IMG/VR virus record: IMGVR_UViG_2690316269_000013
Span: 1 to 19,402 of that record
Reading direction: 5' to 3' (one strand)
From: a virus
Taxonomy: Duplodnaviria > Heunggongvirae > Uroviricota > Caudoviricetes
DNA length: 19,402 nt
The translations under genes and the position numbers were made by a program. Shown here in pieces: positions 1,243 through 19,402 of this stretch. The notes under the pieces are model-generated. The model saw only the letters and a program-made list of their open reading frames with translations, did no database searches and had not been told where the DNA came from. The stretch's first letter is position 1, and each line of letters opens with the position of its first letter.

Positions 1243-1400
1243 AATCACTAATTGCTGATGTTATCGGGCTGGCTGGTTTTGGCCTGCTTACGTGCGGGTT
1301 TTACCTGCAGTTTGGTATGGCTCCGGCTCTGATGCTGTCCGGCGGTTTACTGCTGGTGGGCGCACTGGCTATGGCCAGAAGGGGGACGCGTGCTGCTTGA
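1239..1400 (+). CDS. Small hydrophobic protein (53 aa, two predicted transmembrane segments), unknown function
   Basis: Not in the ORF track (below 60 aa). ATG at 1239 overlaps the terminase stop (ATGA). Translation [53 protein letters not shown] is almost entirely hydrophobic with a basic C-terminus. It fills the terminase-portal gap exactly. Confidence 0.45.
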
Positions 1401-2616: not shown

Positions 2617-3211
2617 CCGTGAAATCCGTTGTTACAGCGGTGAGGTGCGTGCTGAGCGGCATGACGATAACCCTGCGCACATTATCGGTTATGGATCGGT
2701 GTTTGACTGTCGTTCTGAGCTGATATTTGGTTCATTCCGCGAAATCATCCGGCCCGGCGCTTTTGACGATGTGCTTGGTGATGATGTACGCGCACTGTTT
2801 AACCACGATCCTAATTTTATTCTTGGGCGTAGTGCAGCAGGCACGCTGAATCTTTCAGTTGATGAGCGCGGATTGCGCTATGACATCCAGGCTCCGGAGA
2901 CACAGACCATTCGTGATCTGGTGCTGGCCCCGATGCAACGTGGAGATATTAACCAGTCATCTTTTGCTTTCCGTGTCGCCCGTGACGGCGAGGAGTGGTA
3001 TCAGGATGAGGACGGGGTTGTTATTCGCGAGATAACCCGCTTTTCCCGTCTGCTGGATGTCAGTCCTGTGACATATCCTGCCTATCAGGAGGCTGACTCG
3101 GCTGTTCGCTCCATGAAAGCATGGCAGGAGGCGCGCAACAGCGGCGCGCTACAGAAAGCCATTAATCAACGTATGGCGCGTGAACGCGTCCTGACCCTTC
3201 TTAACGCGTAA
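2609..3211 (+). CDS. Prohead maturation protease (HK97 family, peptidase U35/S78-like)
   Basis: ORF 2552-3211. I favour the ATG at 2609, which has a GAGGG Shine-Dalgarno about 9 nt upstream and overlaps the portal stop (ATGAATGA). Translation contains the HDPNFILGRS-type region typical of HK97 prohead proteases. Lies between portal and major capsid. Confidence 0.8.
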   Translation: MNDREIRCYSGEVRAERHDDNPAHIIGYGSVFDCRSELIFGSFREIIRPGAFDDVLGDDVRALFNHDPNFILGRSAAGTLNLSVDERGLRYDIQAPETQTIRDLVLAPMQRGDINQSSFAFRVARDGEEWYQDEDGVVIREITRFSRLLDVSPVTYPAYQEADSAVRSMKAWQEARNSGALQKAINQRMARERVLTLLNA

Positions 3212-3221
3212 AGGAAACATC

Positions 3222-4451: not shown

Positions 4452-4477
4452 TTAGTCTTTTTACGTAATACAGCACG

Positions 4478-4519
4478 CCGCGTAATGCGGTTTTTTTGTG
4501 CCCGCGTTCTGGCGGGCAC
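4478..4519 (+). terminator. Possible partial terminator/attenuator after the major capsid gene: weak stem plus T7 run, then a perfect 8-bp hairpin
   Basis: CCGC(4478-4481)/GCGG(4487-4490) stem followed by TTTTTTT (4491-4497). Then GTGCCCGC (4498-4505), loop GTTCTG, GCGGGCAC (4512-4519), directly abutting the GGAGG site of the next gene. Seen by eye; folding energy not computed. Confidence 0.35.
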
Positions 4520-4529
4520 AGGAGGTTTT

Positions 4530-4853
4530 ATGCTGTTAAAAATGGAAGAGATTAAGCTTCAGCTTCGTCTGGATGATGATTTCTCTGATGAAGATGAGTT
4601 GCTTGAACTACTTGGGAAGGCCGCTCAGAGTCGGACGGAAAACTTCCTTAACCGTACGTTGTATGCAACCGCAGATGACAGGCCTGCGGATGATCCTGAT
4701 GGGCTTGTGATATCTGATGATGTGAAGCTGGCGCTCCTGCTACTTGTCAGCCATTTCTACGAAAACCGCTCAACGGTTACAGACGTTGAGAAAATGGAGT
4801 TGCCAATGAGCTTTAACTGGTTGGTTGCTCCTTATCGCCTTATACCACTATGA
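4530..4853 (+). CDS. Head-tail connector / DNA-packaging protein (gp6-like)
   Basis: Frame opens at 4485, but GGAGG at 4521-4525 points to the ATG at 4530 (MLLKMEEIK...). Small acidic protein immediately after the major capsid gene. Family assignment is by position and size. Confidence 0.55.
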   Translation: MLLKMEEIKLQLRLDDDFSDEDELLELLGKAAQSRTENFLNRTLYATADDRPADDPDGLVISDDVKLALLLLVSHFYENRSTVTDVEKMELPMSFNWLVAPYRLIPL

Positions 4854-5260
4854 AAATTCGTCAGGCGCAGACCAGCGCAACCTACATTCTGCCGGACCCC
4901 GGCGAACTGAATAAACGCGTCCTGATCCGCCAGCGGGTGGATATGCCCGCGGATAACTTTGGCGTGGAGCCTCAATACCCGGTTGCGTTCCGGACATGGG
5001 CGAAGGTTGTCCAGACCAGTGCCACCACCTGGCAGGAAACCGCGCAGACCGGGGACGCCATCACCCATTACATCACCATTCGTTACCGCCGGGGGATCAC
5101 CGCTGATTATGAGGTGGTCTGCGGTGACAGTGTGTACCGGGTGAAACGTCAGCGCGATCTGAACGGGGCGCGGCGCTTTCTGCTGCTGGAGTGTACGGAG
5201 CTGGGCGAGTTTACGCAGAGTCACGGAGGCAGCAATGGCGACTCCCTTTTTTCACGTTGA
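4850..5260 (+). CDS. Head closure / head-tail adaptor protein
   Basis: ATGA overlap with the preceding gene. ~136 aa, in the standard head-completion position. Assignment is positional. Confidence 0.5.
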   Translation: MKIRQAQTSATYILPDPGELNKRVLIRQRVDMPADNFGVEPQYPVAFRTWAKVVQTSATTWQETAQTGDAITHYITIRYRRGITADYEVVCGDSVYRVKRQRDLNGARRFLLLECTELGEFTQSHGGSNGDSLFSR

Positions 5261-5741
5261 TGTTCAGCAGCCCGCGGAAATGCGCTTTAACCGCGCCCGT
5301 GTCCGGCGGGCGTTTATCACGATTGGGCAGCGTCATATGCGTGATGCCCGTCGGCTGGTGATGCGCCGTGCGCGGTCGGCACCGGGTGAAAACCCCGGTT
5401 ATCAGACCGGACGCTTGGCTCGTTCGATTGGTTACATGGTGCCGAGAGCCAGTAAAAAGCGAGCCGGTTTTATGACACGCATTGCCCCTAACCAGCACAA
5501 CGGGAAGGGGAACCGGATGATCTCTGGTGACTTCTATCCGGCGTTTCTGTTTTTTGGTGTCCGGGGAGGAGCAAAACGTCGTCGTAGTCATCATCGTGGT
5601 GCATCCGGTGGCAGCGGCTGGCGACTGGCTCCACGTAATAATTTCATGGTGGAAACTCTTGAAAAGAACCGCAGCTGGACACGCTATTTTCTGGCGCGGG
5701 AATTGCGTAAATCACTGAAGCCGGAGCGACGACACAGATGA
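5235..5741 (+). CDS. Virion morphogenesis / tail-completion protein (HK97 gp10-like)
   Basis: GGAGG precedes the ATG at 5235. Basic 168-aa protein within the head-tail joining block. Weak, recognition-based call. Confidence 0.45.
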   Translation: MATPFFHVDVQQPAEMRFNRARVRRAFITIGQRHMRDARRLVMRRARSAPGENPGYQTGRLARSIGYMVPRASKKRAGFMTRIAPNQHNGKGNRMISGDFYPAFLFFGVRGGAKRRRSHHRGASGGSGWRLAPRNNFMVETLEKNRSWTRYFLARELRKSLKPERRHR

Positions 5742-6298
5742 AACTGACTCCTGTTATTGCTGCGCTGCGTGCCCGCTGTCCGTATTTTGAAAACCGGGTG
5801 GCAGGCGCGGCCCAGTTCAAAAATCTGCCGGAGGTCGGAAAGCTGAAGCTCCCGGCGGCATATGTGGTACCGGGTGATGACTCTCCGGGAGAAAACAAAA
5901 GCCAGACCGACTACTGGCAGGAGCTGAAAGAGGGCTTCTCCGTGGTTGTCATACTGAGTAACGGGCGTGATGAGCGCGGTCAGTTTGCCTCGTATGATGT
6001 GGTGGACGATGTCCGGCAGATGCTCTTTAAGGCTCTGCTGGGCTGGAACCCGGAAGCGTGTGGTAACCCGATTACCTATGACGGCGGCACGCTGCTGGAT
6101 CTGAATCGTCATGAGCTGATTTATCAGTTCGATTTTTCGGTCATCAGCGAGCTGACCGAAGACGATACCCGCCAGCAGGATGACCTGAACAGTCTGGATG
6201 AACTGCGAACGCTGGCGATTGATGTTGATTATCTCGATCCCGGTAACGGGCCTGACGGCGATATCGAACATCACACCGAAATACCCCTTCCTTCCTGA
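5738..6298 (+). CDS. Neck / tail terminator-like protein (Mu gp37-like, DUF1834-type)
   Basis: ATGA overlap with the upstream gene. 186 aa, located just before the DUF2635-like ORF and the sheath, as in Mu-like tail clusters. Confidence 0.5.
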   Translation: MKLTPVIAALRARCPYFENRVAGAAQFKNLPEVGKLKLPAAYVVPGDDSPGENKSQTDYWQELKEGFSVVVILSNGRDERGQFASYDVVDDVRQMLFKALLGWNPEACGNPITYDGGTLLDLNRHELIYQFDFSVISELTEDDTRQQDDLNSLDELRTLAIDVDYLDPGNGPDGDIEHHTEIPLPS

Positions 6299-6306
6299 GG
6301 ATCATC

Positions 6307-6477
6307 ATGTTTGTGAAACCTGTTAAAGGGCGGTCAGTGCCTGACCCTGCCCACGGCGACCTTTTGCCCGCCGAAGGGCGAAATGTTGATGAGAACAACT
6401 ACTGGCTGCGCCGTGAAGCAGCGGGTGATATCCGGCGCGTGAATAAAAAGGTGAACACCGATGACGATAAGCTTTAA
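6307..6477 (+). CDS. Small DUF2635-like protein that precedes the sheath in Mu-type tail clusters
   Basis: Not in the ORF track (56 aa). ATG at 6307, TAA at 6475-6477. Translation MFVKPVKGRSVPDPAHGDLLPAEGRNVDENNYWLRREAAGDIRRVNKKVNTDDDKL. Its 3' end overlaps the sheath start. Confidence 0.6.
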   Translation: MFVKPVKGRSVPDPAHGDLLPAEGRNVDENNYWLRREAAGDIRRVNKKVNTDDDKL

Positions 6478-7957
6478 CACCATTCCGTCGAATACGCTGG
6501 TTCCGCTGTTTTATGCGGAAATGGATAACCAGGCTGCGAATACTGCACAGGACAGCGGAGCATCGCTGCTGATTGGTCATGCCAATAACGGTGCAGAGAT
6601 TGTTGCCAACAGTCTGGTGCTGATGCCGTCGGCAGACTATGCACGCCAGATTTGTGGTGCGGGAAGTCAGCTGGCGCGTATGGTCGAGGCTTATCGCCAG
6701 ACCGACCCGTTTGGTGAGCTGTATGTGATTGCCGTTCCGGAAGCCACAGGCGCGGCGGCAACGGTTACGCTGACGGTGACCGGGGAAGCAACCGAAAGCG
6801 GCACGGTGAATGTCTATGTGGGACGTACCCGCGTGCAGGCTCCGGTGACCAACGGCGATAACGTCACGACGATTGCCAGCAGTATCCAGGATGCCATCAA
6901 TGCCGTTCCGACCCTGCCGTTTACTGCCTCATCTTCGGCAGGCGTGGTCACACTGACCGCGCGTCATAAGGGGCTTTGCGGGAATGAAATTCCTGTCAGC
7001 CTCAATTACTACGGCTTTGGTGGGGGCGAAGTGCTGCCAGCGGGCGTACAGATTGCCGTGGCGACGGGTACCGCCGGAACGGGTGCTCCGGTTCTCACCG
7101 GCGCGGTGGCTGCAATGGCGGATGAGCCGTTTGATTATATCGGCCTGCCGTTCAACGACACGGCCTCCGTTAACACGCTGGTGACCGAGATGAACGATAC
7201 CAGCGGTCGCTGGAGCTATGCGCGTCAGCTGTATGGTCATGTGTATACGGCAAAGATCGGCACGCTGTCAGAACTGGTGACCGCAGGTGACCAGTTTAAC
7301 CAGCAGCACATTACCCTGGCGGGATACGAAAAAGAGACCCAGACGCCTGCCGACGAGCTGGCGGCAAGCCGTACCGCCCGCGCAGCGGTGTTTATTCGCA
7401 ACGATCCGGCACGTCCCACGCAGACCGGTGAGCTGGTGGGTATGCTGCCTGCGCCGAAGGGGAAACGGTTCACGATGACCGAACAACAGACCCTGCTGTC
7501 TCATGGCGTGGCAACGGCGTATGTCGAAAGCGGGGTGCTGCGCATTCAGCGTGATGTCACCACGTACAGGAAAAACGCTTACGGTGTTGCGGATAACAGC
7601 TACCTCGACAGCGAGACGCTGCATACCAGCGCGTATGTGCTGCGCAAACTGAAATCCGTCATTACCAGTAAGTACGGGCGTCACAAGCTTGCCAGCGACG
7701 GTACCCGCTTTGGTCCCGGTCAGGCGATTGTCACACCGGCGGTGATCAAAGGGGAACTGCTGGCAACCTACCGTCAGCTTGAGCGTGCGGGGATCGTGGA
7801 AAACTACGAACTGTTTAAGCAGTACCTGGTTGTGGAGCGTGATGCCAGCGATCCGAACCGCCTGAACACGCTGTTCCCGCCTGACTATGTTAACCAGTTG
7901 CGTGTCTTTGCCGTGGTTAACCAGTTCCGTCTTCAGTATTCAGAGGAGTCTGCATAA
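6461..7957 (+). CDS. Contractile tail sheath protein (Mu gpL-like)
   Basis: 498-aa ORF with AAGGTG ribosome-binding site, followed by a small tube gene with TAATG overlap. Size and position are typical of a sheath. Confidence 0.85.
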   Translation: MTISFNTIPSNTLVPLFYAEMDNQAANTAQDSGASLLIGHANNGAEIVANSLVLMPSADYARQICGAGSQLARMVEAYRQTDPFGELYVIAVPEATGAAATVTLTVTGEATESGTVNVYVGRTRVQAPVTNGDNVTTIASSIQDAINAVPTLPFTASSSAGVVTLTARHKGLCGNEIPVSLNYYGFGGGEVLPAGVQIAVATGTAGTGAPVLTGAVAAMADEPFDYIGLPFNDTASVNTLVTEMNDTSGRWSYARQLYGHVYTAKIGTLSELVTAGDQFNQQHITLAGYEKETQTPADELAASRTARAAVFIRNDPARPTQTGELVGMLPAPKGKRFTMTEQQTLLSHGVATAYVESGVLRIQRDVTTYRKNAYGVADNSYLDSETLHTSAYVLRKLKSVITSKYGRHKLASDGTRFGPGQAIVTPAVIKGELLATYRQLERAGIVENYELFKQYLVVERDASDPNRLNTLFPPDYVNQLRVFAVVNQFRLQYSEESA

Positions 7958-8313
7958 TGGCCCGTATCGGGGGAACCTGTTATTTCAAAATTGACGGTCA
8001 ACAGCTATCGCTGACCGGCGGCATTGAGGTGCCCATGAACAGGACGGTCAATGATGACATCATCGGCCTGGACGGTTCAGTGGACCGCAAGGAAACTCAC
8101 CGTGCGCCTTATGTTAAAGGGACCTTCAAGGTGCCGAAGAATTTTCCGGTGAGCAAAATCACCTCGTCTGATGAGATGACCATCACTGCCGAGCTGGCGA
8201 ACGGTCAGGTCTATGTACTGTCGTCTGCCTGGCTGCACGGCGAAGCGAACCATAATGCCGAAGAAGGGACGGTTGATCTTGAGTTCCACGGTGAAGAAGG
8301 GGATTACCAGTAA
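7957..8313 (+). CDS. Tail tube protein (Mu gpM-like)
   Basis: 118 aa, TAATG-coupled to the sheath gene and followed by the chaperone and tape-measure genes. Confidence 0.7.
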   Translation: MARIGGTCYFKIDGQQLSLTGGIEVPMNRTVNDDIIGLDGSVDRKETHRAPYVKGTFKVPKNFPVSKITSSDEMTITAELANGQVYVLSSAWLHGEANHNAEEGTVDLEFHGEEGDYQ

Positions 8314-8582
8314 TGAAAGAGCTTGAGTTAAAGAAACCGATTACCGCTCATGGCGAGACACTCTCCGTACTGGAGTTTGATGAGCCCACCGGGAAAGATG
8401 TCCGCGAGCTGGGGTATCCCTACCAGATGAATCAGGATGAGTCCGTCAGACTTCTGGCGCATGTGGTATCGAAATACATTGTGCGGCTGGCGAAAGTGCC
8501 GCAAAACTCTGTCGACCAGATGTCTCCGGCAGACCTGAATGCTGCGGCGTGGCTTGTGGCTGGTTTTTTCCTCCAGGCCTGA
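8313..8582 (+). CDS. Tail assembly chaperone, short form (G-like)
   Basis: 89-aa acidic protein directly upstream of the tape-measure gene. It ends just after a TTTTTTC slippery heptamer. Confidence 0.6.
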   Translation: MKELELKKPITAHGETLSVLEFDEPTGKDVRELGYPYQMNQDESVRLLAHVVSKYIVRLAKVPQNSVDQMSPADLNAAAWLVAGFFLQA

Positions 8583-8731
8583 CGGCTGAATACCTCACTG
8601 ATCGCTTCTTTGACTGCGCCAGCTACTGGCGCATTAATCCCTTCGAATTGCTGAATATGCCGATCAGTGAAATTCCCTTGCTGGTCAGTCAGGCAAACAG
8701 GATAGAGCAGGAGAAACGCACACATGGCTGA
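8313..8731 (+). CDS. Tail assembly chaperone, long form (GT-like), made by programmed -1 frameshift at 8564-8570
   Basis: Zero-frame codons GGT TTT TTC (8562-8570) contain the heptamer T-TTT-TTC. The -1 frame (track ORF 8549-8731) stays open to a TGA at 8729-8731, overlapping the tape-measure start. This is the conserved chaperone arrangement upstream of tape-measure genes. Confidence 0.55.
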
Positions 8732-10556
8732 ATTTGAGCTTAAGGCGTTGATCACCGGTGTCGACAGACTTTCTCCCGCGCTGTCGAAAATGCAAAAGAA
8801 AATCCGGGGATTTAAACGCCAGGCGGAAGAAGCATCACAGGGTGGGCTGGCGCTTGGTGGCGGACTGGCAGCGGGTCTGACGCTTTCCCTGAAATCTTAT
8901 GCCGATCAGGAAAACGCCGCCACCGGGCTGAAAGTCGCCATGATGGATGCGAACGGCGAGGTCGGAAAGAGCTTTCAGGACATCAATAAACTGGCTATTG
9001 GCCTGGGTAACCAGCTACCCGGTACAACGGCTGATTTCCAGAACATGATGCAGATGCTGGTGCGTCAGGGGATCCCGGCAGAAAACATTCTGGGTGGTGT
9101 GGGTAAAGCGACAGCTTATCTTGCGGTACAACTGAAAAAAACACCGGAAGCGGCTGCTGAGTTTGCTGCAAAGATGCAGGATGCTACCGGAACGGCGTCA
9201 GAAGACATGATGGGGCTGTTCGACACTATCCAGAAGGCGTTTTATCTGGGCGTTGACGATACCAACATGTTGTCCTTCTTCACTAAAACCAGTTCTGTTC
9301 TGAAGATGGTGAACAAGGATGGTCTTCAGGCTGCACAGAGCCTTGCCCCCATCAGCGTCATGATGGATCAGATGGGGATGAACGGGGAGTCGGCAGGTAA
9401 TGCCCTGCGAAAAGTTATCCAGTCCGGATTAAGCGTTAAGAAAATCAGGGACGTTAATAAAATCATGGCCCGCCAGAAACTCGGGGTACAGCTCGATTTT
9501 ACTGACGGCAAAGGGAGTTTTGGCGGTCTTGATAACATGTTCAGGCAACTGGCAAAGCTGCGAAAACTGACCGACGTTAAGCGAACAGGTGTACTTAAGG
9601 CAATATTTGGTGATGATGCGGAAACTCTTCAGGTGGTCAATGCACTAATCGATAAAGGAAAGGATGGCTACGATCAGATCCAGCAGAAGATGAATAAACA
9701 GGCCAGCCTGAATAAACGTGTTCAGGCACAGCTTGGTACGCTGTCCAACCTGTGGGAGGCAATGACAGGGACCGCAACTAACGGCCTTGCGGCTATTGGC
9801 GGCGCATTTTCTGGTGACGCTAAAAATATCACACAATGGCTGGGGGAGTTGGGGGAGAAATTCACGAAGTTTGCGGATGAAAATCCCCGGGTTATTCGCG
9901 GCGTCGTCGGGCTTGCTGCCGGTCTTGCGATTCTGAAACTGGGATTGATGGGCGTGGGCAGTGCCATCAGTATTGTCAGCAGGATTATGTCGATGACGCC
10001 GATTGGCATGATTGCGACGGCGATTGCTCTGGCTGCGGGATTAATTATCACTAACTGGGATGTTGTCGGACCTTATTTCAAGAAGCTCTGGGAAACCATT
10101 GGTCCTTATTTTGAGGCAGGTTGGGAACTTCTGAAGAAGGTTTTTGCCTGGTCGCCGCTGGGGATGGTGATCAATAACTGGGGACCGGTTGTTAAGTGGT
10201 TTCAGGATATGTGGGACAAGCTGAAGCCAATTATTGAGTGGTTTACCGACAGTTCCGGTGACACGGTCGATGCCATTAACTCTGCGCAGTGGGGCGCGGG
10301 TGCTTATGATGCTTATGGGACGGGAATACCGGCGCGGGGATACACACCTTATCCGGCGGTGGATCCGGCTCAGTCAAACAACGCCTCCGATGCCACAGGC
10401 TCGAATCCCTTCATGATTAACAAAGCTTCTGTGCCAAAAGTTGATGGTGAGATCAAGGTCTCTTTTGTGAATTCGCCTCCGGGTATGCGGGTTATGGAAA
10501 CGCGATCCAGCGGTTTTGATGTCAGCCATGATGTTGGCTATACGCGGTTCAGGTAG
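8724..10556 (+). CDS. Tail tape measure protein
   Basis: 610 aa, AGGAGA ribosome-binding site. Ala/Gly-rich stretches and a long hydrophobic segment (…GLAAGLAILKLGLMGVGSAISIVS…). Follows the frameshifted chaperone. Confidence 0.85.
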   Translation: MAEFELKALITGVDRLSPALSKMQKKIRGFKRQAEEASQGGLALGGGLAAGLTLSLKSYADQENAATGLKVAMMDANGEVGKSFQDINKLAIGLGNQLPGTTADFQNMMQMLVRQGIPAENILGGVGKATAYLAVQLKKTPEAAAEFAAKMQDATGTASEDMMGLFDTIQKAFYLGVDDTNMLSFFTKTSSVLKMVNKDGLQAAQSLAPISVMMDQMGMNGESAGNALRKVIQSGLSVKKIRDVNKIMARQKLGVQLDFTDGKGSFGGLDNMFRQLAKLRKLTDVKRTGVLKAIFGDDAETLQVVNALIDKGKDGYDQIQQKMNKQASLNKRVQAQLGTLSNLWEAMTGTATNGLAAIGGAFSGDAKNITQWLGELGEKFTKFADENPRVIRGVVGLAAGLAILKLGLMGVGSAISIVSRIMSMTPIGMIATAIALAAGLIITNWDVVGPYFKKLWETIGPYFEAGWELLKKVFAWSPLGMVINNWGPVVKWFQDMWDKLKPIIEWFTDSSGDTVDAINSAQWGAGAYDAYGTGIPARGYTPYPAVDPAQSNNASDATGSNPFMINKASVPKVDGEIKVSFVNSPPGMRVMETRSSGFDVSHDVGYTRFR

Positions 10557-10615
10557 TGTACAAAATGATTAATGTGTTTTTGTCTGGCATAATTTGGGTT
10601 TTCAGCTTTAAGTAG

Positions 10616-10625
10616 TTAATATAAT
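10616..10625 (+). promoter_or_regulatory. Candidate sigma70 -10 element (TATAAT) upstream of the AT-rich insert gene
   Basis: Perfect TATAAT at 10620-10625, about 30 nt upstream of the ATG at 10656. No convincing -35 hexamer found. This intergenic gap is unusual in an otherwise translationally coupled operon. Confidence 0.3.
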
Positions 10626-10655
10626 CATTCCTTACAAATGATTGAAGGGATGATT

Positions 10656-11150
10656 ATGCGTATCTTTGTTTTTTTTATATCTGCACTTTTATCTTTTAAC
10701 TTGGCTGCGGAAGAGTGTAAGTTCAGCTTTAATGAGTCAGAATTAATCTCTTCTATAGGTATTGCACCAGTTAAGCAAGAGATAATAAAGGATGAAGGAA
10801 TAACTAAGCGGCAATATGAATTCAGAAGAGAATTATCTTCTGAAGAAATGCTTAGTGATGACGCTGATGAAAAATATGAGCCGCAGTTTTATATATCTGT
10901 TTATAATCCATCATGCCCACAAAAGGTTATTGTTTGGTTTTTCAAAGACAATAAAAACACAATGGATTTAAGTAATGAGGTCCTTGCTGGTAGAGCGTTC
11001 AAGTATTTAACTGGTGTTAATGAAAGTATTTTTGAAAATAAAATGAAAAAGTTTTTAAAGGTACAGTCATTTGAATCTTTTGATGAAAGAACAGATTCTA
11101 AATTTATAAAGAGTGGTAATATTTATTCCATTGATGTTCAACTCAGATAG
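10656..11150 (+). CDS. Secreted or periplasmic protein of unknown function, encoded on an AT-rich insertion (moron)
   Basis: Track ORF is 10638-11150. I favour the ATG at 10656 because GAAGGG lies ~6 nt upstream and the product then begins MRIFVFFISALLSFNLAAEEC, a classic signal peptide (basic n-region, hydrophobic core, NLA-A cleavage site; no lipobox). Mature part has two Cys. G+C is visibly far lower than the flanking genes. I do not recognise the family. Confidence 0.7.
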   Translation: MRIFVFFISALLSFNLAAEECKFSFNESELISSIGIAPVKQEIIKDEGITKRQYEFRRELSSEEMLSDDADEKYEPQFYISVYNPSCPQKVIVWFFKDNKNTMDLSNEVLAGRAFKYLTGVNESIFENKMKKFLKVQSFESFDERTDSKFIKSGNIYSIDVQLR

Positions 11151-11169
11151 TAATTAAAAATATTAGGTT

Positions 11170-11226
11170 CCCGCCACATCTTCTGCGATGTAAATAACTG
11201 ACAAAGCAGATTTGGCGGGTTTTTTG
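11170..11226 (+). terminator. Possible intrinsic terminator after the insert gene
   Basis: CCCGCCA (11170-11176) pairs with TGGCGGG (11213-11219), with inner pairing TCTGC (11182-11186)/GCAGA (11206-11210), followed by TTTTTT (11220-11225). The enclosed loop is long, so this is not a textbook terminator. Confidence 0.4.
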
Positions 11227-11240
11227 TATCCGGAGTTTAT

Positions 11241-12569
11241 ATGACGTGGAAAGACAGGCTTCAGGATGCGTCATTTCGCGGCGTACCGTTTAAGGTTGAA
11301 GAAGAAAGTGCGGGAACCGGTCGCCGTGTGGAAACACACGAATATCCGAACCGCGACAAGCCCTATACCGAAGATCTGGGAAAAGTCACTTTCCGCCCGT
11401 CCATCACAGCTTATGTGGTGGGAGATGACTGCTTTGACCAGCGCGATCGCCTGATTGAAGCGCTGAATAAACCCGGTCCCGGCACGCTTGTCCACCCGAC
11501 ATATGGTGAGCTGAAAGTCTGTGTTGACGGGGAAGTTCGGGTCAGCACATCGAAAAGTGAAGGGCGTATTGTCCGCTTTGACCTGAAGTTTGTCGAAGCA
11601 GGAGAAATCTCTTACCCCACATCAGGTGCGGCGACGGCGCAGACGCTGATGTCATCCTGTTCTGCACTGGATGACTGCATCAGTGACAGCTTCAGCGGTT
11701 TCAGTATCGATGGTGTGGCGGATTTCGTGCAGAACGACGTTATCGGTAATGCCAGCATAATGCTGGGGTATGTTTCTGATGCGATGAAAGTGGTGGATTC
11801 TGCCGTATCGGATGCCGCCAGGCTGTTGCAGGGGGATATCTCGGTACTTCTGCCGCCGCCATCGTCAGGCAAAAATTTCGTTGAGCAGGTGCAGAAAATG
11901 TGGCGTACCGGGAAACGCCTTTATGGTAACGCCAGCGACCTGGTCACCATGATCAAAACGCTTTCCGGTGTCAGCCTCGGCAGCGATCTGCAACCGCGCG
12001 GCGTCTGGAAAACGGACAGTAAAACCACCGCCACGGCGACGCAGCAGCGTAACGTGGTTGCCAGCACCCTTCGTACGACCGCAATCAGCGAAGCGGCGTA
12101 TGCCGTCACCCGATTGCCTGCGCCAACAACTTCCGCGGTGATGCAGAATTCCGCAGTGGGGCAGGCAACAACACCCGCGCAGAGCACTGGCTGGCCTTCC
12201 GTCACGCATCCGGCACTGAACAATGCACCGGCGGTGAAAAACACGGTTGACCTGCCGACGTGGGAAGAACTGACTGACATTCGCGACACACTGAATACGG
12301 CAATTGATAAGGAGTTGTCCCGTACAACCAGCGATGCGCTGTTTCTGGCGCTGCGCCGGGTGAAAGCAGATCTGAATGCGGATATCAACACGCGCCTTGA
12401 ACAGTCTGCACGGATCATTCAGCGCACACCGGATGAGGTTTTACCCGCGCTGGTGCTGGCGGCGACCTGGTTTGATAACGCGGCGCGTGACGCGGACATT
12501 ATCCGGCGTAATGCCATTACGCATCCCGGCTTTGTGCCGGTGATCCCTCTGAAGGTGCCAGTGCAATGA
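11241..12569 (+). CDS. DNA circulation protein (Mu gpN-like)
   Basis: 442 aa. N-terminus MTWKDRLQDASFRGVPFKVEEE...HEYPNRDKPYTEDLG matches my memory of the Mu N family. Located between tape measure and baseplate hub. Confidence 0.8.
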   Translation: MTWKDRLQDASFRGVPFKVEEESAGTGRRVETHEYPNRDKPYTEDLGKVTFRPSITAYVVGDDCFDQRDRLIEALNKPGPGTLVHPTYGELKVCVDGEVRVSTSKSEGRIVRFDLKFVEAGEISYPTSGAATAQTLMSSCSALDDCISDSFSGFSIDGVADFVQNDVIGNASIMLGYVSDAMKVVDSAVSDAARLLQGDISVLLPPPSSGKNFVEQVQKMWRTGKRLYGNASDLVTMIKTLSGVSLGSDLQPRGVWKTDSKTTATATQQRNVVASTLRTTAISEAAYAVTRLPAPTTSAVMQNSAVGQATTPAQSTGWPSVTHPALNNAPAVKNTVDLPTWEELTDIRDTLNTAIDKELSRTTSDALFLALRRVKADLNADINTRLEQSARIIQRTPDEVLPALVLAATWFDNAARDADIIRRNAITHPGFVPVIPLKVPVQ

Positions 12570-13645
12570 ACGACAATGTCACGCTACGGGTAAATGGCCG
12601 GGAGTGGAATGGCTGGACATCGGTGCGCATCGGTGCCGGTATTGAACGGCTGGCGCGGGATTTCAGTGTGGAGATCACCCGCCAGTGGCCGGGAGATGAG
12701 GGTATCACCACGCTTCAGCCGCGCATTAAAAACGGTTCAAAAGTGGAAGTGCTGATTGGTGATGAGCTGGTGATCACCGGCTGGGTGGAGGCGACGCCCG
12801 TTCGTTACGATTCCCGTTCGGTCAGCACCGGTATTGCCGGACGTAGTCTGACGGCTGACCTGATTGACTGTGCAGCCGAACCGACACAGTTTAACGGACG
12901 CTCGCTGGTGCAGATTGCGCAGGCGCTTGCTGCGCCTTTCGGCATTGAGGTGGTGAACAGCGGTGCGCCGTCGGGTGTTATTCCTGATGTTCAGCCTGAT
13001 CACGGTGAAACGGTGATTGAGGTAATCAACAAAATACTCGGTCAGCAGCAGGCACTGGCTTACGACGACCCGCACGGCAGGCTGGTGATTGGCGGTATTG
13101 GCTCAACGCGGGCACATACTGCGCTGGTACTCGGGGAAAACATCCTTTCCTGCGATACGGAGAAGAGTATCCGGGAGCGGTTTTCTGTTTACCAGGTGGC
13201 GGGGCAGCGTGCCGGAAACGACGATGATTTCGGTGAGGCCACCACCACCGCGCTGCGGGCCCGCACAGAGGACGCATTTATTGCCCGTTACCGTCCGATG
13301 TATATCAGGCAGACAGGGCAGGCTACGGGGGCAGGCTGTATTGCCCGTGCGGACTTTGAAGCCAGACAACGGGCGGCGCGGACGGATGAAACCACCTATG
13401 TGGTGCAGGGCTGGCGACAGGGTAACGGTACGCTGTGGCAGCCCAACCAGCGGGTGATTGTCTTTGATCCGGTCTGTGGTTTCGACAATACCGAACTGCT
13501 TGTTTCGGAAGTCACGTTTACTCAGGACCAGAACGGCACCCTGACGGAAATCCGTGTCGGCCCACCTGATGCTTATCTGCCTGAACCCGAAGCCCCCGGC
13601 GCGCGGAAAAAGAAAAAAGCCAGAGTACAGGAGGACCCGTTCTGA
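12566..13645 (+). CDS. Baseplate hub protein (Mu gpP / gp44-like, P2 gpD analogue)
   Basis: 359 aa, ATGA-coupled to the upstream gene, in the conserved position after the DNA-circulation gene. Confidence 0.75.
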   Translation: MNDNVTLRVNGREWNGWTSVRIGAGIERLARDFSVEITRQWPGDEGITTLQPRIKNGSKVEVLIGDELVITGWVEATPVRYDSRSVSTGIAGRSLTADLIDCAAEPTQFNGRSLVQIAQALAAPFGIEVVNSGAPSGVIPDVQPDHGETVIEVINKILGQQQALAYDDPHGRLVIGGIGSTRAHTALVLGENILSCDTEKSIRERFSVYQVAGQRAGNDDDFGEATTTALRARTEDAFIARYRPMYIRQTGQATGAGCIARADFEARQRAARTDETTYVVQGWRQGNGTLWQPNQRVIVFDPVCGFDNTELLVSEVTFTQDQNGTLTEIRVGPPDAYLPEPEAPGARKKKKARVQEDPF

Positions 13646-14193
13646 TGAGGACGATTGAAGCCATGCAGCGACAACTCCTCGGCCTGATTGGGCGGGCCGT
13701 GGTGAAAAGCATCAGTGCCGCCACGAAATGTCAGACCGTGGATGTGTCCCTGATTGCCGGTGAACCCAAAGCCGGGGTTGAACATCTTGAACCCTACGGT
13801 TTTACCGCAAGGGCAAACAGCGGTGCGGAAGCGGTGGTGTTGTTTCCGGATGGCGACCGTTCTCATGCGGTGGTTGTTACGGTGTCGGACCGGCGCTACC
13901 GCCTGAAAGGGCTGCAGACGGGTGAGGTGGCTGTCTATGACGATCAGGGGCAGTCCGTGACGCTGACCCGGGAGGGGATCGTGGTGGACGGTGCAGGTAA
14001 AACGATCACGTTTCGCAATTCACCTAAAGCACGTTTTGAAATGGACCTGGAAGTGACAGGACAGGTGAAAGACCTGTGCGACTCCGGCGGCACCACCATG
14101 TCAGCGATGCGGCTTGCCTATAACGGGCATCGTCACAGAGAGAACGGTCAGGGCAGTAACACCGACAAACCTGATAAAGCGATGGAGGCATGA
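13645..14193 (+). CDS. Baseplate assembly / spike protein (gpV-like, Mu gp45-like)
   Basis: 182 aa, TGATG-coupled. Size, position and OB-fold-like N-terminal region fit a gpV-type spike. Confidence 0.7.
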   Translation: MRTIEAMQRQLLGLIGRAVVKSISAATKCQTVDVSLIAGEPKAGVEHLEPYGFTARANSGAEAVVLFPDGDRSHAVVVTVSDRRYRLKGLQTGEVAVYDDQGQSVTLTREGIVVDGAGKTITFRNSPKARFEMDLEVTGQVKDLCDSGGTTMSAMRLAYNGHRHRENGQGSNTDKPDKAMEA

Positions 14194-14618
14194 TGGAACT
14201 GTGGCTGACGGTGAACGGTAAACGCACCTGCGCCAGCGCACCGCTGGATCCGCTGACCCGCGCCGTGGTGATTTCCCTGTTTACCTGGCGGCGGGCGGAG
14301 CCTGATGACAACGCCGACGTCCCGATGGGATGGTGGGGGGATACCTGGCCTGCGGTACAGAATGACCGTTACGGCTCCCGACTGTGGCTGCTTCAGCGCA
14401 GCAAACTGACCAATCAGCTGGTGCAGACGGTAAGGGGGTATATCCGCGAATGCCTGCAATGGATGATTGATGACGGCGTGGTGTCCCGTATTGATCTGGA
14501 TATCCGCCGCACCGGGATTAATGAACTGGGTAACAGTATCACTCTCTGGCGTCGTGACGGACCGGTAATGATTTCTTTTGATGATCTGTGGAGTGCGATA
14601 ACGCATGGCGGACAGTGA
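14190..14618 (+). CDS. Baseplate protein (Mu gp46-like, gpW/gp25-type)
   Basis: 142 aa, overlapping start, sits between spike and baseplate J genes. Confidence 0.6.
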   Translation: MMELWLTVNGKRTCASAPLDPLTRAVVISLFTWRRAEPDDNADVPMGWWGDTWPAVQNDRYGSRLWLLQRSKLTNQLVQTVRGYIRECLQWMIDDGVVSRIDLDIRRTGINELGNSITLWRRDGPVMISFDDLWSAITHGGQ

Positions 14619-15663
14619 ATTTCAGCGCCCGACGCTGGCAGAAAATATCAGTATGCTCCGTAACGATTTATTTGCCAGGCTGGACGTCAGCGACACGCTC
14701 CGGCGCATGGATGAAGACGTGCGGGCAAAGGTGTATGCGGCGGCGCTGCATACGGTTTACGGGTACATCGATTATCTGGCAATGAATATGCTGCCTGACC
14801 TGTGCGATGAGTCCTGGCTGGCGCGACATGCTGCGATGAAACGGTGTCCGCGCAAGGGGGCCACGGCTGCCAGCGGGTATATGCGCTGGGAAGGTGTCAG
14901 CGATGGCCTGAAGGTGACCGCCGGGAGTGTTATTCAGCGCGATGACCTGGTTCAGTACACGGCAACTGCCGATGCAACCAGCACTGGTGGTGTCCTGCGT
15001 GTGCCGATCACTTGCTCAACTACAGGCGCGGTCGGTAACGCTGACGACGGTACGGCATTAATCCTGGTCACGCCGGTGAATGGTCTGCCGTCTTCCGGTG
15101 TGGCTGACACCCTGACAGGCGGATTTGATACTGAAGAGCTGGAAACGTGGCGCGCCCGCGTCATTGAGCGGTATTACTGGACGCCTCAGGGCGGGGCTGA
15201 CGGGGACTATGTCGTCTGGGCTAAAGAAGTGCCCGGCATTACCCGCGCATGGACATACCGACACTGGATGGGAACGGGGACTGTCGGTGTGATGATTGCC
15301 AGCAGTGACCTGATTAATCCCATTCCGGAAGAGTCAACGGAAACGGCGGCAAGACAACATATCGAGCCACTGGCCCCGGTGGCAGGCTCTGATTTGTATG
15401 TATTCAGGCCGGTGGCGCATAAAGTGGATTTTCATATCCGCGTGACGCCGGACACACCGGAAATACGGGCTGCCATCACCGCCGAGTTGCGTTCGTTCCT
15501 GCTGCGTGATGGTTATCCGCAGGGAGAACTGAAGGTGTCACGTATCAGTGAAGCGATTTCCGGTGCGAACGGGGAATACAGCCATCAGTTGCTTGCCCCG
15601 GCGGACAATATCTCCATTGCAAAAAATGAGCTGGCGGTTCTGGGGACGATTTCATGGACGTGA
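14605..15663 (+). CDS. Baseplate J-like protein (Mu gp47 / P2 gpJ-like)
   Basis: 352 aa, in conserved order before the gp48/YmfQ-like gene and the tail fibre. Confidence 0.8.
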
Positions 15664-16238
15664 CAAACGATGATTATATCCGTCTGTTGTCGGCACTGTT
15701 GCCGCCCGGTCCGGCGTGGTCAGTCAGCGATCCGGCGATTGCCGGTGCGGCACCGTCATTAACCCGCGTTCATCAGCGTGCGGATGCCCTGATGCGGGAG
15801 CTGGATCCGCGCACCACCACTGAACTGATAAACCGCTGGGAGCGTCTGTGCGGTCTGCCGGATGAATGTATTCCCGCAGGGACACAGACCCTTCGCCAGC
15901 GTCAGCAACGGCTGGATGCGAAGGTTAATCTGGCGGGCGGCATCAATGAGGATTTTTATCTTGCACAGCTTGCTGCCCTGGGCAGACCAGACGCCACTAT
16001 CACGCGATACGATAAAAGCACGTTCACCTGCTCATCGGCCTGTACTGACGCAGTGAATGCGCCGGAATGGCGGTATTACTGGCAGGTCAACATGCCAGCC
16101 GCCACCAACACCACCTGGATGACATGTGGCGATCCCTGTGATTCCGCACTGCGTATCTGGGGCGACACCGTTGTCGAGTGCGTGCTTAACAAACTCTGCC
16201 CTTCGCATACCTACGTAATTTTTAAATATCCGGAGTAA
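15654..16238 (+). CDS. Tail protein (Mu gp48 / YmfQ-like, DUF2313; P2 gpI analogue)
   Basis: 194 aa, overlaps the J-like gene and directly precedes the tail fibre gene, as in e14 and Mu. Confidence 0.6.
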
Positions 16239-16241
16239 TCC

Positions 16242-16997
16242 ATGCATCGTATAGACACGAAAACCGCGCAGAAGGATAAGTTCGGCGCGGGTAAAAACGG
16301 TTTTACCCGTGGTAACCCCCAGACTGGCACGCCTGCCACCGATCTGGATGATGACTACTTTGACATGTTGCAGGAGGAGCTTTGCAGCGTTGTAGAGGCA
16401 TCCGGTGCCAGTCTCGAGAAGGCGCGGCACGACCAGCTGCTTACCGCACTTCGTGCGCTGCTGTTAAGCCGCAAGAATCCGTTTGGCGATATCAAATCGG
16501 ATGGCACTGTGCAAACGGCTCTCGAAAACCTTGGTTTGGGAGAAGGCTCAGCGTTACCCGTTGGTGTACCTGTTCCGTGGCCTTCAGCCACACCGCCAAC
16601 AGGCTGGATTAAATGCAACGGTGCGCCTTTTTCTGCTGAAGAATACCCGGAGCTGGCAAAAGTTTATCCAGCGTTAAAATTGCCTGATTTGCGCGGTGAA
16701 TTTATCCGTGGCTGGGATGATGGGCGCGGGGTTGATAGTGGGCGCGTTGTTTTAACTGGTCAGAGCCAATCAGTACAGCAGCATACTCATGATCTAGCGA
16801 TGGCATACAGTTCAGATACCGCTTACAGGGACAGGCTGGGCGATACCCCTGACTCTGACATGATTCCGATTAAATATATGATTAATGCAACCACTTTTAA
16901 TGGCTCTGGTTGGGTTTACTTAAAGGCGAATGGTTCAACAGGTGCTGAAACTCGCCCGCGCAACCTCGCATTCAACTACATTGTAAGGGCAGTATAA
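16242..16997 (+). CDS. Tail fibre protein: constant N-terminal part fused to the currently expressed variable C-terminal part
   Basis: GGAG ribosome-binding site. 251 aa with C-terminal motifs typical of enterobacterial fibre tips (…[58 protein letters not shown]…). An invertase crossover site lies inside the gene at 16520-16546. Confidence 0.75.
16520..16546 (+). repeat. Left recombination (crossover) site for the DNA invertase, inside the tail fibre gene
   Basis: TCTCGAAAACC-TT-GGTTTGGGAGAAGG is an imperfect palindrome around a central TT and resembles hix/gix-type sites. The 15-nt core TTGGTTTGGGAGAAG recurs in inverted orientation at 18361-18375. Confidence 0.6.
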
Positions 16998-17602
16998 TGA
17001 CCGCAAAAGAAATTTCATTAGATGAAAACGGTTTCGCCACGGAAGACGGATATATCACCGTTTATAATTATGATGGCGTGACGCGTGAATATATCGGTTT
17101 AGCTGTTGAATATCTTCCCGTTGGCGTTGGTGTTCCAGGCAATTCGTGCGTGGATGCGCCAATCAGCAAAAAGGACGGCTTTGCTGTTTGCCGGACGGCT
17201 GATTTGACCGGTTGGGAATACGTTGCAGACCATCGCGGCGAAACCGTTTACAGCACGGAAACTGGAAAGCATGTGACAGTTTCACGGTTGGGAGAATACC
17301 CGGAAGGCACCACCACCACAGCACCATCTACGCCATATGACAAATGGGATGGTGAGAAATGGGCTACAGATAGCGATAAACAGCACTCGGCGAACGTGGC
17401 CGAAGCCGAGCAACAGAAAACAAATCTTCTGAACGCCGCAAATTCAAAAATCAGCCTGTGGCAAACGGAACTGCAGTTAGGCATTATCAGTGGCGATGAC
17501 AAAGCCAGCCTGATTGCCTGGATTGGCTACATTAAGGCGGTGCAGGCAACAGATACCAGCACCGCGCCGAATGTCATCTGGCCTGAACTGCCGGAGGCGT
17601 AG
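16997..17602 (+). CDS. Tail fibre assembly protein (chaperone for the + orientation fibre tip)
   Basis: 201 aa, TAATG-coupled to the fibre gene. Conserved Tfa-type C-terminus (…WIGYIKAVQATDTSTAPNVIWPELPEA). Confidence 0.75.
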   Translation: MTAKEISLDENGFATEDGYITVYNYDGVTREYIGLAVEYLPVGVGVPGNSCVDAPISKKDGFAVCRTADLTGWEYVADHRGETVYSTETGKHVTVSRLGEYPEGTTTTAPSTPYDKWDGEKWATDSDKQHSANVAEAEQQKTNLLNAANSKISLWQTELQLGIISGDDKASLIAWIGYIKAVQATDTSTAPNVIWPELPEA

Positions 17603-18014
17603 GCCATTCAATATCTGGCGCACCGGAAGTATCGACCAGTTCCAGTGCGTCCAGATAATCCAGCCACAAATTATATTGCGCCAGTTCCTCACCTTTCAGG
17701 CGACCAATCGCTGCTTTACCAGGCCATTGCTTACTGTATATGTATTCGTTGACCTGATTAATCAATTGCTGCTTTTCCAGTTCGGTTGCGGCAATTTGTT
17801 CCTCATGAGTTGGCGGTGGAATATCAATCCATGCAGGCATTCCGTCGATGACGCCTCTGTATTTTCCTTCTGGTGCTTCCTTCATAAATTCGGCGGCAAC
17901 AGTGTCGTCAATTTCGATTCCATCACCGGGCCATTCGCCGGATTCCTGATAAGCGATTTTAAGCTCCACAGGGAAAAACGCATTTTTATCGGCACTGAAA
18001 ATATATTTCTGCAT
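17574..18014 (-). CDS. Alternative tail fibre assembly protein (chaperone for the inverted-orientation fibre tip)
   Basis: 146 aa on the minus strand with a Tfa-type C-terminus (…LWLDYLDALELVDTSGAPDIEWPTPPAVQAR). Its 3' end overlaps the + strand chaperone gene by about 29 nt. Confidence 0.75.
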   Translation of the reverse strand: MQKYIFSADKNAFFPVELKIAYQESGEWPGDGIEIDDTVAAEFMKEAPEGKYRGVIDGMPAWIDIPPPTHEEQIAATELEKQQLINQVNEYIYSKQWPGKAAIGRLKGEELAQYNLWLDYLDALELVDTSGAPDIEWPTPPAVQAR

Positions 18015-18016
18015 TT

Positions 18017-18373
18017 CTACCGTCCTATCGAAATATAACTGAATCTGTATTGCTGTGAGATATCACTGGTTGCCACACGCCACGCTGAATTACTGATATG
18101 TTCAAAATTTACAGACAAAACCTGCGGGGCAGGATTCGACGGGTCTGACTGAACGGCATCAGACATAACACTGACTGAAACCATCGGCTGATTAGGGAAT
18201 GGTATAGGGAAGTGTCCACTGATAAAGCGGGTCGTGTTTCCTGAAAAAGTGCCAAACTGAACAATATATCCACCTGGTAGCCTGAACCATCCCGAACCAG
18301 AAGCGAATGCTCCCATATCCGGTATCTGATTATCTCCTGTGCCCACATCCCTTTTCGCCGCTTCTCCCAAACC
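18017..18373 (-). CDS. Alternative tail fibre variable C-terminal segment, without its own start; expressed only after inversion
   Basis: Minus-strand frame is open from the right crossover site down to a stop at 18017-18019, 2 nt from the alternative chaperone start. Read on the minus strand, the junction encodes GLGE, the same residues as at the + strand crossover (…ENLGLGEG…), so inversion would make an in-frame fusion. The apparent start is an artefact of the ORF caller. Confidence 0.6.
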   Translation of the reverse strand, partial: GLGEAAKRDVGTGDNQIPDMGAFASGSGWFRLPGGYIVQFGTFSGNTTRFISGHFPIPFPNQPMVSVSVMSDAVQSDPSNPAPQVLSVNFEHISNSAWRVATSDISQQYRFSYISIGR

Positions 18374-18387
18374 AACCTTTCAAATAT
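18361..18387 (-). repeat. Right recombination (crossover) site for the DNA invertase
   Basis: Minus-strand reading ATATTTGAAAGG-TT-GGTTTGGGAGAAG. The inner half and centre match the left site exactly; the outer half is degenerate. Confidence 0.55.
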
Positions 18388-18414
18388 TTTTCTGAATCAG
18401 GTGATATTTCGCCT

Positions 18415-18441
18415 CTTCTCCTGTTTTTACAACAGGAGAAG
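18415..18441 (+). promoter_or_regulatory. Perfect 11-bp inverted repeat that would sequester the invertase ribosome-binding site
   Basis: CTTCTCCTGTT (18415-18425), loop TTTAC, AACAGGAGAAG (18431-18441). The right arm contains the AGGAGA Shine-Dalgarno 6 nt upstream of the invertase ATG (18447). Confidence 0.45.
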
Positions 18442-18446
18442 CACTC

Positions 18447-19010
18447 ATGATTTACGGGTATGTTCGTGTATCAACAAATCATCAGGATACAGAGTTGCAA
18501 CGTCTTGCACTTGAGTCAGCTGGCTGTGAGCGAATTTATGAAGAATATGCCAGTGGCAGAACAGCTAATCGCCCTGTGTTAAAGGAATTAATTACGGTGA
18601 TGAAAAGTGGAGATGAGTTGATTGTCTGGAAGTTAGATCGGATAGGGAGAAATGTGCTGCATGCGCTATTGATGTTTCAAAATCTGCACGAAAAAGGTGT
18701 TAATTTTCGGAGTATTACAGATGGCGTAGACCTGAAAACAGCAAGTGGTCGCTATAATTTTCGTAATATTCTTTCTGCTGCGCAGTATGAATCTGATTTG
18801 AATAGCGAGCGAACTTTAGCTGGTTTGGCTATTGCCAGATCCAAAGGCCGGATTGGTGGGCGTAGACCGAAGTTTAGCGACGAGCAGTGGCAACAGATGG
18901 GAGCGCTCATAGCGGCAGGGAAATCACGGCGTTATGTTGCACGTATCTATAACGTTGGGCTATCAACCCTATATAAACGATTTCCTGTTACTGGCATTCA
19001 AACGAAATAA
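18447..19010 (+). CDS. pin: Serine recombinase, DNA invertase (Pin/Gin/Hin/Cin family)
   Basis: 187 aa. N-terminus MIYGYVRVSTNHQDTELQ carries the catalytic-serine motif of resolvase/invertase enzymes. Core VWKLDRIGRN and C-terminal helix-turn-helix (…YNVGLSTLYKRF…) are as in Pin/Hin/Gin. Low G+C compared with the structural genes. Confidence 0.9.
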   Translation: MIYGYVRVSTNHQDTELQRLALESAGCERIYEEYASGRTANRPVLKELITVMKSGDELIVWKLDRIGRNVLHALLMFQNLHEKGVNFRSITDGVDLKTASGRYNFRNILSAAQYESDLNSERTLAGLAIARSKGRIGGRRPKFSDEQWQQMGALIAAGKSRRYVARIYNVGLSTLYKRFPVTGIQTK

Positions 19011-19050
19011 TTTAAAAGCAATTTAAAGAGTTATTTGTCTAATGTTGGAA

Positions 19051-19086
19051 GCCGCAGCCACGTCGTATGCAAGAACGTGCTGCGGC
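19051..19086. terminator. Imperfect hairpin between the convergent invertase and DinI-like genes; possible bidirectional terminator
   Basis: GCCGCAGCCACGT (19051-19063), loop, ACGTGCTGCGGC (19075-19086), one-base bulge, in an AT-rich context. No clean U-run on either strand. Confidence 0.3.
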
Positions 19087-19153
19087 TGGCTGGCGAACTT
19101 TCGATAGTGCGAGTATTGAATGATTTCCAGCCGTTACCGATTTTACGTGTTAA

Positions 19154-19402
19154 TTAGTGAACAAACCACTCGTCAGCAGATTCCCAGGTATCTTTCAGAG
19201 TCTCCTGAACAAAAGTTTTTGCAGAATCCTTATCTGCGGTGCGTGTAACAGAAAGGCCATCATTGCTGGTGGCTTTTACGATCACCTCTACATCGTCATA
19301 ACGTTTACTGATGCGTCGGGTTAATTCTTCCTTTAACGCATCCACAGCACCGGTTGGCATTTTAGTCATTTTTTCTTTGGCTATGCAGATTTCAATACGC
19401 AT
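19154..19402 (-). CDS. dinI: DinI-like protein (DNA damage-inducible protein I family)
   Basis: 82 aa on the minus strand: [82 protein letters not shown]. Size, MRIE start and acidic …[10 protein letters not shown]-terminal tail match my memory of DinI. The start codon is the last three bases of the window, so the promoter is not visible. Confidence 0.75.

Follow-up and report, generated by a model that had tools for sequence, protein, structure and literature searches.

A dinI-Like Gene Preceded by Two Predicted LexA Operators in a dusA-Integrated Prophage of Escherichia coli

The final 249 bases of a 19,402-nucleotide stretch of Caudoviricetes DNA (IMG/VR record IMGVR_UViG_2690316269_000013, positions 1 to 19,402; hereafter the window) form a complete open reading frame, as seen from the ORF list and its translation, for a DinI-like protein. 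We consider it quite probable that this gene is a self-contained, LexA-repressed prophage cassette whose product, a paralogue of DinI, would be made in the SOS response, bind RecA filaments and modulate the cleavage of CI and UmuD. Prophage dinI genes with an SOS box are already known and are annotated in several sequenced E. coli phages, and the window represents no new kind of element. It is a clean example of a known one, combining a dual LexA operator with a cleavable CI, and as such should be a good model for study in a monolysogen. Prophage copies of DinI are common, and the LexA control predicted for them is that of the induction signal itself. If such copies shift the threshold for RecA*-dependent repressor cleavage, the induction of Stx phages, the release of toxin and SOS mutagenesis under antibiotics would be affected, an idea that is already in the literature. 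The features discussed below are collected in Table 1.

Table 1. Features at the right-hand end of the 19,402-nucleotide window.
Feature	Position	Strand	Basis
Serine DNA invertase (Pin/Gin type)	18447..19010	+	Pfam Resolvase E=3.3e-36, HTH_7 E=7.3e-12
G+C-rich hairpin, cassette end	19051..19086	-	Fold of 19020-19160 (-): -36.4 kcal/mol, z=-4.0
Conserved 3' UTR of dinI-like transcript	19087..19153	-	Homology among cassettes of different prophages
49-nt island within 3' UTR	19095-19143	-	48/49 identical to ecpE-ykgJ relic
DinI-like protein gene	19154..19402	-	82 aa + TAA stop; Pfam, PHROG, K-12 DinI alignment, Foldseek, dN/dS

The DinI-Like Gene and Its Product

The first-pass annotation of this DNA, which was made from the letters of the window, had proposed a DinI-family gene on the strand opposite to an invertase gene, convergent with it and starting at the last triplet of the window. 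All three of these points hold. The ATG is the reverse complement of bases 19400-19402, the two genes converge, and the product is carried in RefSeq as WP_001217553.1, "DinI-like family protein". Its match to the Pfam DinI family (PF06183, E=1.1e-19) takes in the whole profile, positions 1-63 of 63, at 70.9 bits against a cut-off of 24.2. The protein also matches PHROG 189, "RecA filament binding protein DinI" (E=5.7e-31), although of the 151 positions of that profile it aligns to 71-149 only. To the DinI protein of E. coli K-12 (b1061) it is 46% identical end to end, and in a sequence search of the PDB the only structures matched were those of DinI (1GHH and 7YWA, E=3.7e-13). A single-sequence AF2 model of moderate quality (pLDDT 77) has the element order E-H-H-E-E-H-H and a predicted beta-alpha-beta-beta-alpha fold. 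When this model was compared with known structures using Foldseek, the top matches were again 1GHH and 7YWA (probability 1.00, TM 0.64-0.68), and these were the only significant ones, the next having E=0.06. Similarity to DinI, on which the earlier assignment depended, is thus found by profile, by full-length alignment with the chromosomal protein, and by solved structures matched in both sequence and fold.

The surface through which DinI contacts RecA is also largely retained. In the chromosomal protein, as established by cryo-EM and mutagenesis, the pocket that receives RecA F203 is made up of L13, L21, W71, W77 and F78, and E24, E69 and D76 face RecA K232/R243/K245 (Gao et al. 2023, PMC9926225). 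Taken in that order, these residues align to M15, L23, W73, W79, F80, E26, D71 and E78 of the prophage protein, so that five of the eight contact positions are identical and three are conservative. K-12 DinI (PDB 1GHH; 7YWA with the RecA filament) resembles the prophage protein in length (81 versus 82 amino acids), in fold and in its contact positions. The two differ in three two-residue indels, all located in loops, and in charge, the prophage protein being less acidic (pI 5.4 versus 4.7). Against the NCBIfam DinI equivalog model NF007893 the prophage protein reaches 73 bits, under the cut-off of 111, whereas K-12 DinI reaches 178. We therefore regard it as a paralogue and not as an equivalog of chromosomal dinI, and judging from this score some functional divergence from DinI is possible.

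The DNA to the right of the window was taken from the prophage of enterotoxigenic E. coli (ETEC) H10407 and from near-identical genomes, and not from the window's own source. Bases 18400-19402 of the window are 99.8% identical to the H10407 prophage, with two mismatches, at 18761 and 19262, and the same 99.8% match was found in about 60 other complete E. coli genomes. At the H10407 locus a TAA lies in frame 12 codons 5' of the ATG, and none of the codons in between could serve as a start. The reading frame is therefore not part of a larger protein running past the window edge, the outcome that the earlier annotation had named as one that would undo its reading. Pairwise dN/dS among copies of the cassette is 0.03-0.18, which indicates that the protein is under purifying selection and rules out a pseudogene or a chance reading frame.

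Position of the Gene in the Prophage

In H10407 the next gene upstream, 61 bp away and on the same strand, encodes a tyrosine integrase of 365 amino acids (Pfam Phage_integrase). Beyond the integrase lies the host gene dusA, a 5' fragment of which is found at the opposite end of the prophage, 39.6 kb away. The dinI-like gene thus sits between the integrase and the invertase of a 39.6-kb prophage in dusA. The placing of the gene at the edge of the prophage, as given in the first-pass annotation, needs a correction in one respect: the gene is near the edge but is not outermost, as the integrase and the dusA attachment site lie beyond it, and with the integrase between it and dusA it is the penultimate prophage gene. 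The same gene order, namely dusA fragment, integrase, DinI, invertase and tail fibres, is found in the isolated phage SKA5. The invertase, which is of the serine type, is labelled "recombinase family protein" in RefSeq.

The insertion is in the 5' end of dusA, and the displaced dusA fragment is at the far end (L001 21065-22250 and L002 12174-12278, both H10407). The integrase gene is divergent from dusA, and a "tRNA-dihydrouridine" fragment adjoins the integrase gene in the SKA5 phage genome (L018 1556-2864). The integrase of this prophage presumably belongs with the known family of dusA-specific integrases. The distance from the host lexA-dinF operon (L002 7615-8223) to the dusA integration site (prophage from L002 12174) is only about 4 kb, a closeness that is probably a coincidence of chromosomal neighbourhood.

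The repressor of the prophage has an HTH_3 domain and a Peptidase_S24 domain (S24 E=3.7e-25). As the CI protein carries this peptidase domain, it should be cleavable directly in a RecA*-dependent manner, without an antirepressor.

Promoter and LexA Boxes

The first-pass annotation had noted that the promoter would be outside the window and had suggested extending the sequence rightwards in search of a LexA box of the form CTGT-N8-ACAG. In the near-identical genomes this search yielded two such boxes, both perfect, over a sigma-70 promoter. Read on the gene strand of H10407, the 61 bp between the integrase and dinI-like genes are TCTTGACA-CTGTTTATCCATACAG-TTAAAAATAATA-CTGTATACAAACACAG-TATAGAGGGACTTTT-ATG, the two LexA boxes being CTGTTTATCCATACAG and CTGTATACAAACACAG. 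A promoter scan of this spacer found TTGACA-N18-AAAAAT, with 10/12 matches, and its -35 hexamer is overlapped by the stop codon of the integrase gene. The distal box fills the spacer between -35 and -10. The proximal box begins 5 bp past the -10 hexamer and covers the expected start site; 15 bp separate its end from the ATG. Box strength was scored as matches to the 20-mer consensus TACTGTATATATATACAGTA, to which the distal and proximal boxes have 15/20 and 17/20, respectively. By the same measure the single box of chromosomal dinI has 15/20 and that of the 186 promoter p95 has 18/20.

Within the 41-kb locus these two were the only zero-mismatch CTGT-N8-ACAG sites, where 0.30 were expected, and no perfect LexA box was found at any other gene of the H10407 prophage. 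The operators of host lexA and of uvrA/ssb, which served as positive controls for the search, were recovered. Both perfect boxes are present in 57/57 IMG/VR copies that include upstream sequence. More widely, a LexA box lies 15-21 bp 5' of the start codon in 14 of the 15 DinI-like and Tum genes examined, chromosomal dinI and 186 tum among them, the sole exception being that of Yersinia phage YeP1, which has another reading frame directly upstream. In copies of the VT1-Sakai type the distal box has one mismatch (CTGG), and the proximal box is perfect with a different interior. Half-sites that are kept while the interior drifts are the pattern expected of an operator that is in use. The predicted LexA operators over the promoter would place the dinI-like gene in the SOS regulon, and LexA-controlled prophage homologues of dinI have been shown experimentally in Salmonella (PMC3121763, PMC8072944), where nalidixic acid induced the Gifsy dinI homologues 4.6- to 23-fold (PMC8072944).

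In copies that have no integrase gene upstream, tandem TGCCCCAT-like repeats occur just before the -35 hexamer, beside the attachment site (L006 2394-2434, L007 141-200, L008 and L009 about 2870-2930). The TGCCCCAT-like repeats may be arm-type binding sites for the integrases of those phages.

Proposed Role in SOS Induction

We propose the following sequence of events. In the lysogen, LexA would be bound in vivo at both operators, the one in the promoter spacer and the one at the start site, and would keep the dinI-like gene tightly off. Upon DNA damage RecA* would cleave LexA and the 82-aa protein would be made. Like chromosomal DinI, it would then be expected to bind in the RecA filament groove, at a site (L2 loop F203; K232/R243/K245) that also serves LexA, UmuD and lambda-type CI. 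In this position the protein may make the filament more stable and act as a competitor of substrates that are cleaved slowly, among them CI and UmuD. The most likely consequence would be that cleavage of CI (and UmuD) is damped or delayed, so that the threshold of DNA damage would be higher both for induction and for mutagenesis. In this manner a prophage dinI gene could tune either process.

A limiting effect of phage DinI on induction has been suggested earlier for Stx2a phages (PMC8456039). When the dinI homologues of the Gifsy prophages were deleted in a non-polar manner, induction reporters did not change significantly (PMC3121763). This is the main evidence against a strong phenotype, yet the Gifsy phages use antirepressors and not CI cleavage. 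Depending on its concentration, chromosomal DinI is able to stabilise RecA filaments or to inhibit the coprotease activity (Lusetti 2004; Yasuda 1998/2001), and the sign of any effect on induction is therefore uncertain.

Cassette Structure and Distribution

Comparison of the locus across prophages revealed that the homology has sharp borders. It starts at the -35 hexamer, diversity being 0.30 before this point and 0.06 inside the promoter, continues through the coding sequence and some 100 nt of the 3' UTR, and breaks off just past the hairpin listed in Table 1. The hairpin probably terminates transcription between the two convergent genes, dinI-like and invertase, although it has no clean U-tract here and a consensus terminator scan did not call an intrinsic terminator at 19051-19086. 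In one other copy (L010) the hairpin is followed by TTTTT.

The flanks of the cassette vary. Upstream are the integrase gene or the att-side repeats described above, and downstream are an invertase gene, a tail fibre gene (as in mEp460) or a ykgJ-like ORF. Other dinI alleles adjoin attachment sites, a ykgJ-like ORF or effector genes, examples being VT1-Sakai, with an att site and the ykgJ-like ORF, and BP-4795, with effector genes. In the IMG/VR sample the same integrase is upstream in 52/57 copies and a convergent invertase is present in 23 of the 79 copies with downstream sequence. This allele therefore moves together with the integrase module and is carried into phages that differ in their tails, such as mEp460. 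A megablast search found full-length cassettes in 1408/5426 complete E. coli genomes, or about a quarter. A single genome can have as many as 9 matching places if a partial relic (see below) is counted, and several per genome are possible in EHEC. When GTDB genome contigs were scanned with the protein, only 4 loci came up, all of them near-identical, and the diversity described here was drawn from the phage collection and IMG/VR.

With a promoter of its own and the same unit in varied flanks, the cassette would, from its layout, qualify as a moron, and this raises the possibility that it is cargo of benefit to the host. An extra SOS-induced DinI would then mainly limit UmuD cleavage and mutagenesis or help the lysogen to survive DNA damage or quinolones, and phage induction would not be affected in any important way. 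The unit bounded by its promoter and closing hairpin and the abundance of full-length copies are consistent with such a role, as is the unchanged induction upon deletion of the Gifsy genes. In addition, a DinI-like prophage gene has been associated with later quinolone resistance mutations (bioRxiv 10.1101/2023.06.20.545734). However, the host already has a LexA-controlled dinI of its own, and the near-constant integrase upstream points to either a phage-linked role or simple linkage. We consider a role serving mainly the host unlikely, while recognising that its mechanism is identical to that of the LexA- and RecA-filament-based modulation of CI and UmuD cleavage proposed above, that the beneficiary alone differs, and that the two are not exclusive.

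Conserved 3' End and a Core-Genome Relic

The cassette had megablast matches in 5245/5426 complete E. coli genomes that took in only its last 150 nt. These matches are to a relic between ecpE and ykgJ that is unannotated and that, from its sequence, is a decayed dinI-like pseudogene upstream of ykgJ. Window positions 19051-19211 (-) are about 86% identical to it (L017 3001-3149, from the K-12-derived strain J53). The order dinI then ykgJ in the relic mirrors the dinI gene and ykgJ-like ORF of VT1-Sakai, and the relic is probably the end of an ancient prophage. The K-12 sRNA EcsR2 was considered as an identity for the relic and ruled out, as its gene is on the far side of ykgJ, in the interval from yagU to ykgJ (PMC4350180).

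The relic has decayed in its coding part, and its identity to the cassette is 78% in the flanks of a 49-nt island that is conserved at 48/49 positions (Fisher p=0.0008). Selection on an RNA or DNA element may account for the island, as may gene conversion of a short patch. In Klebsiella pneumoniae the dinI mRNA yields an sRNA, DinR, from its 3' end (PMC10907235), and the prophage gene resembles that system in having a dinI mRNA, here with predicted LexA control, that ends in a long, structured 3' region. It differs in that the DinR 3' end is unrelated in sequence to the prophage 3' UTR, as far as the two were compared, and in that a processed RNA is known for Klebsiella. A bifunctional cassette can be envisaged by analogy, in which the RecA-binding protein is accompanied by a 3' end of about 100 nt, and especially the 49-nt island, acting as a LexA-controlled regulatory RNA, or as a leader for the ykgJ-type gene that comes next in other copies. 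We regard this as a rather improbable extension of the main proposal.

A stricter version, in which the conserved 3' end is itself the SOS-induced regulatory RNA and the protein is secondary, appears very unlikely. The structure of the 3' UTR (z=-4.0) and the survival of the island beside a decayed coding part argue for it, but strong purifying selection acts on the coding region as well, and variable sites are not significantly rarer in the UTR than at third codon positions (18% versus 30% among 35 unique cassettes, p=0.12). Furthermore, 4/39 unique cassette variants lose homology within the 3' UTR, some directly past the stop codon, and the window copy lacks a clean U-tail. No Rfam family was found in the 3' UTR or the relic, with sub-threshold matches only (e.g., CssrB, 22 bits versus a gathering threshold of 76), and pairing with the ftsZ translation start, in what is a weak test, was no better than that of 30% of shuffles. 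A short gene-conversion patch accounts for the island equally well.

Comparison with Antirepressor Systems

Genes with DinI domains also occur in phage switches of another type, and the dinI-like gene could be, or belong to, a LexA-controlled antirepressor unit whose product would bind and thereby inactivate the prophage repressor. The nearest model for the first option is Tum of phage 186, which is LexA-controlled (p95, with one strong box, 18/20), as is predicted for the prophage gene, and has a Pfam DinI domain (E=1.8e-17) as its C-terminal half. Tum has 146 amino acids, however, including an extra N-terminal half, with the DinI domain at 87-145. The prophage protein aligns to residues 70-141 only, with 30% identity. 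The partial alignment to PHROG 189 suggests that the family may hold longer, Tum-type members, and with 82 amino acids the prophage protein covers the DinI half alone. In the related phage PSP3, moreover, it is the gene upstream of the DinI homologue that is credited with antirepressor activity (personal communication in PMC3121763).

The models for the second option are the dinI-antirepressor-irsA operons of the Gifsy prophages (Lemire et al. 2011, PMC3121763), which share with the prophage gene a DinI homologue that has a LexA box 15-21 bp 5' of the start and that is induced by DNA damage in Gifsy and would be so here. They lie in the nin region, have a small antirepressor gene next to dinI and belong to phages with non-cleavable repressors, whereas the gene in the window lies at the int/att end of a prophage whose CI is of the S24 type, for which RecA* cleavage should suffice. 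On the minus strand from 19011 to 19153 there is no downstream ORF of at least 20 amino acids, which argues against a dinI-antirepressor operon; the gene is followed by the hairpin and then the convergent invertase. Taken together, these differences make an antirepressor function highly improbable.

Comparison with Chromosomal and Phage dinI Genes

Modulation of RecA-dependent cleavage by a LexA-controlled DinI paralogue, the reading that we prefer, draws on the likeness to the chromosomal gene, which extends to its control. K-12 dinI also has a LexA-box promoter near its start codon, although with one imperfect box (CTGT..CCAG) in place of two perfect ones, and it lies between pyrC and bssS whereas the prophage gene is between an integrase and a tail-fibre invertase. 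With the dinI genes of lambdoid phages there is no substantive difference. The DinI proteins of mEp460 (gp21), SKA5 and PhiR55_1 are 100% identical to the prophage protein and that of VT1-Sakai (H0001) is 95% identical. Further homologues are ORF85 of BP-4795 and those of dozens of Stx-converting phages. The arrangement of integrase, promoter and dinI is the same in mEp460 and SKA5, and SKA5 also has the convergent invertase.

The mEp460 record names a "RecA filament binding protein DinI" and marks the promoter, and that of VT1-Sakai marks the promoter and a "putative SOS box", which is the proximal box. Phage annotations thus name one SOS box only. The distal box, which is located in the promoter spacer and is perfect in the prophage gene, was the only detail that we did not find annotated in the phage records compared.

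A LexA-Domain Protein in the Same Prophage

During our analysis of the H10407 prophage we noted a second gene with a potential bearing on the SOS circuit. It lies in the early region, outside the window (L002 23510-23836 (+); NC_017633.1 4695509-4695835), and encodes a protein of 108 amino acids that consists of a LexA DNA-binding domain only (Pfam LexA_DNA_bind, E=2.9e-19). The protein is 43% identical to residues 1-86 of host LexA and keeps S39, N41, A42 and E45 of the LexA recognition helix, and has no S24 cleavage domain. The same protein (PHROG 362) occurs in mEp460, PhiR55_1, cdtI and Stx2/Stx2c phages, several of which share the same DinI gene. Its domain content suggests that it could be an SOS-box binder that RecA* does not cleave. 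If it does bind SOS boxes, it might re-repress the dinI cassette and host SOS genes during lytic growth, and if the 3' end of the cassette were in addition a regulatory RNA, the two together would constitute a phage-run layer on the host SOS circuit.
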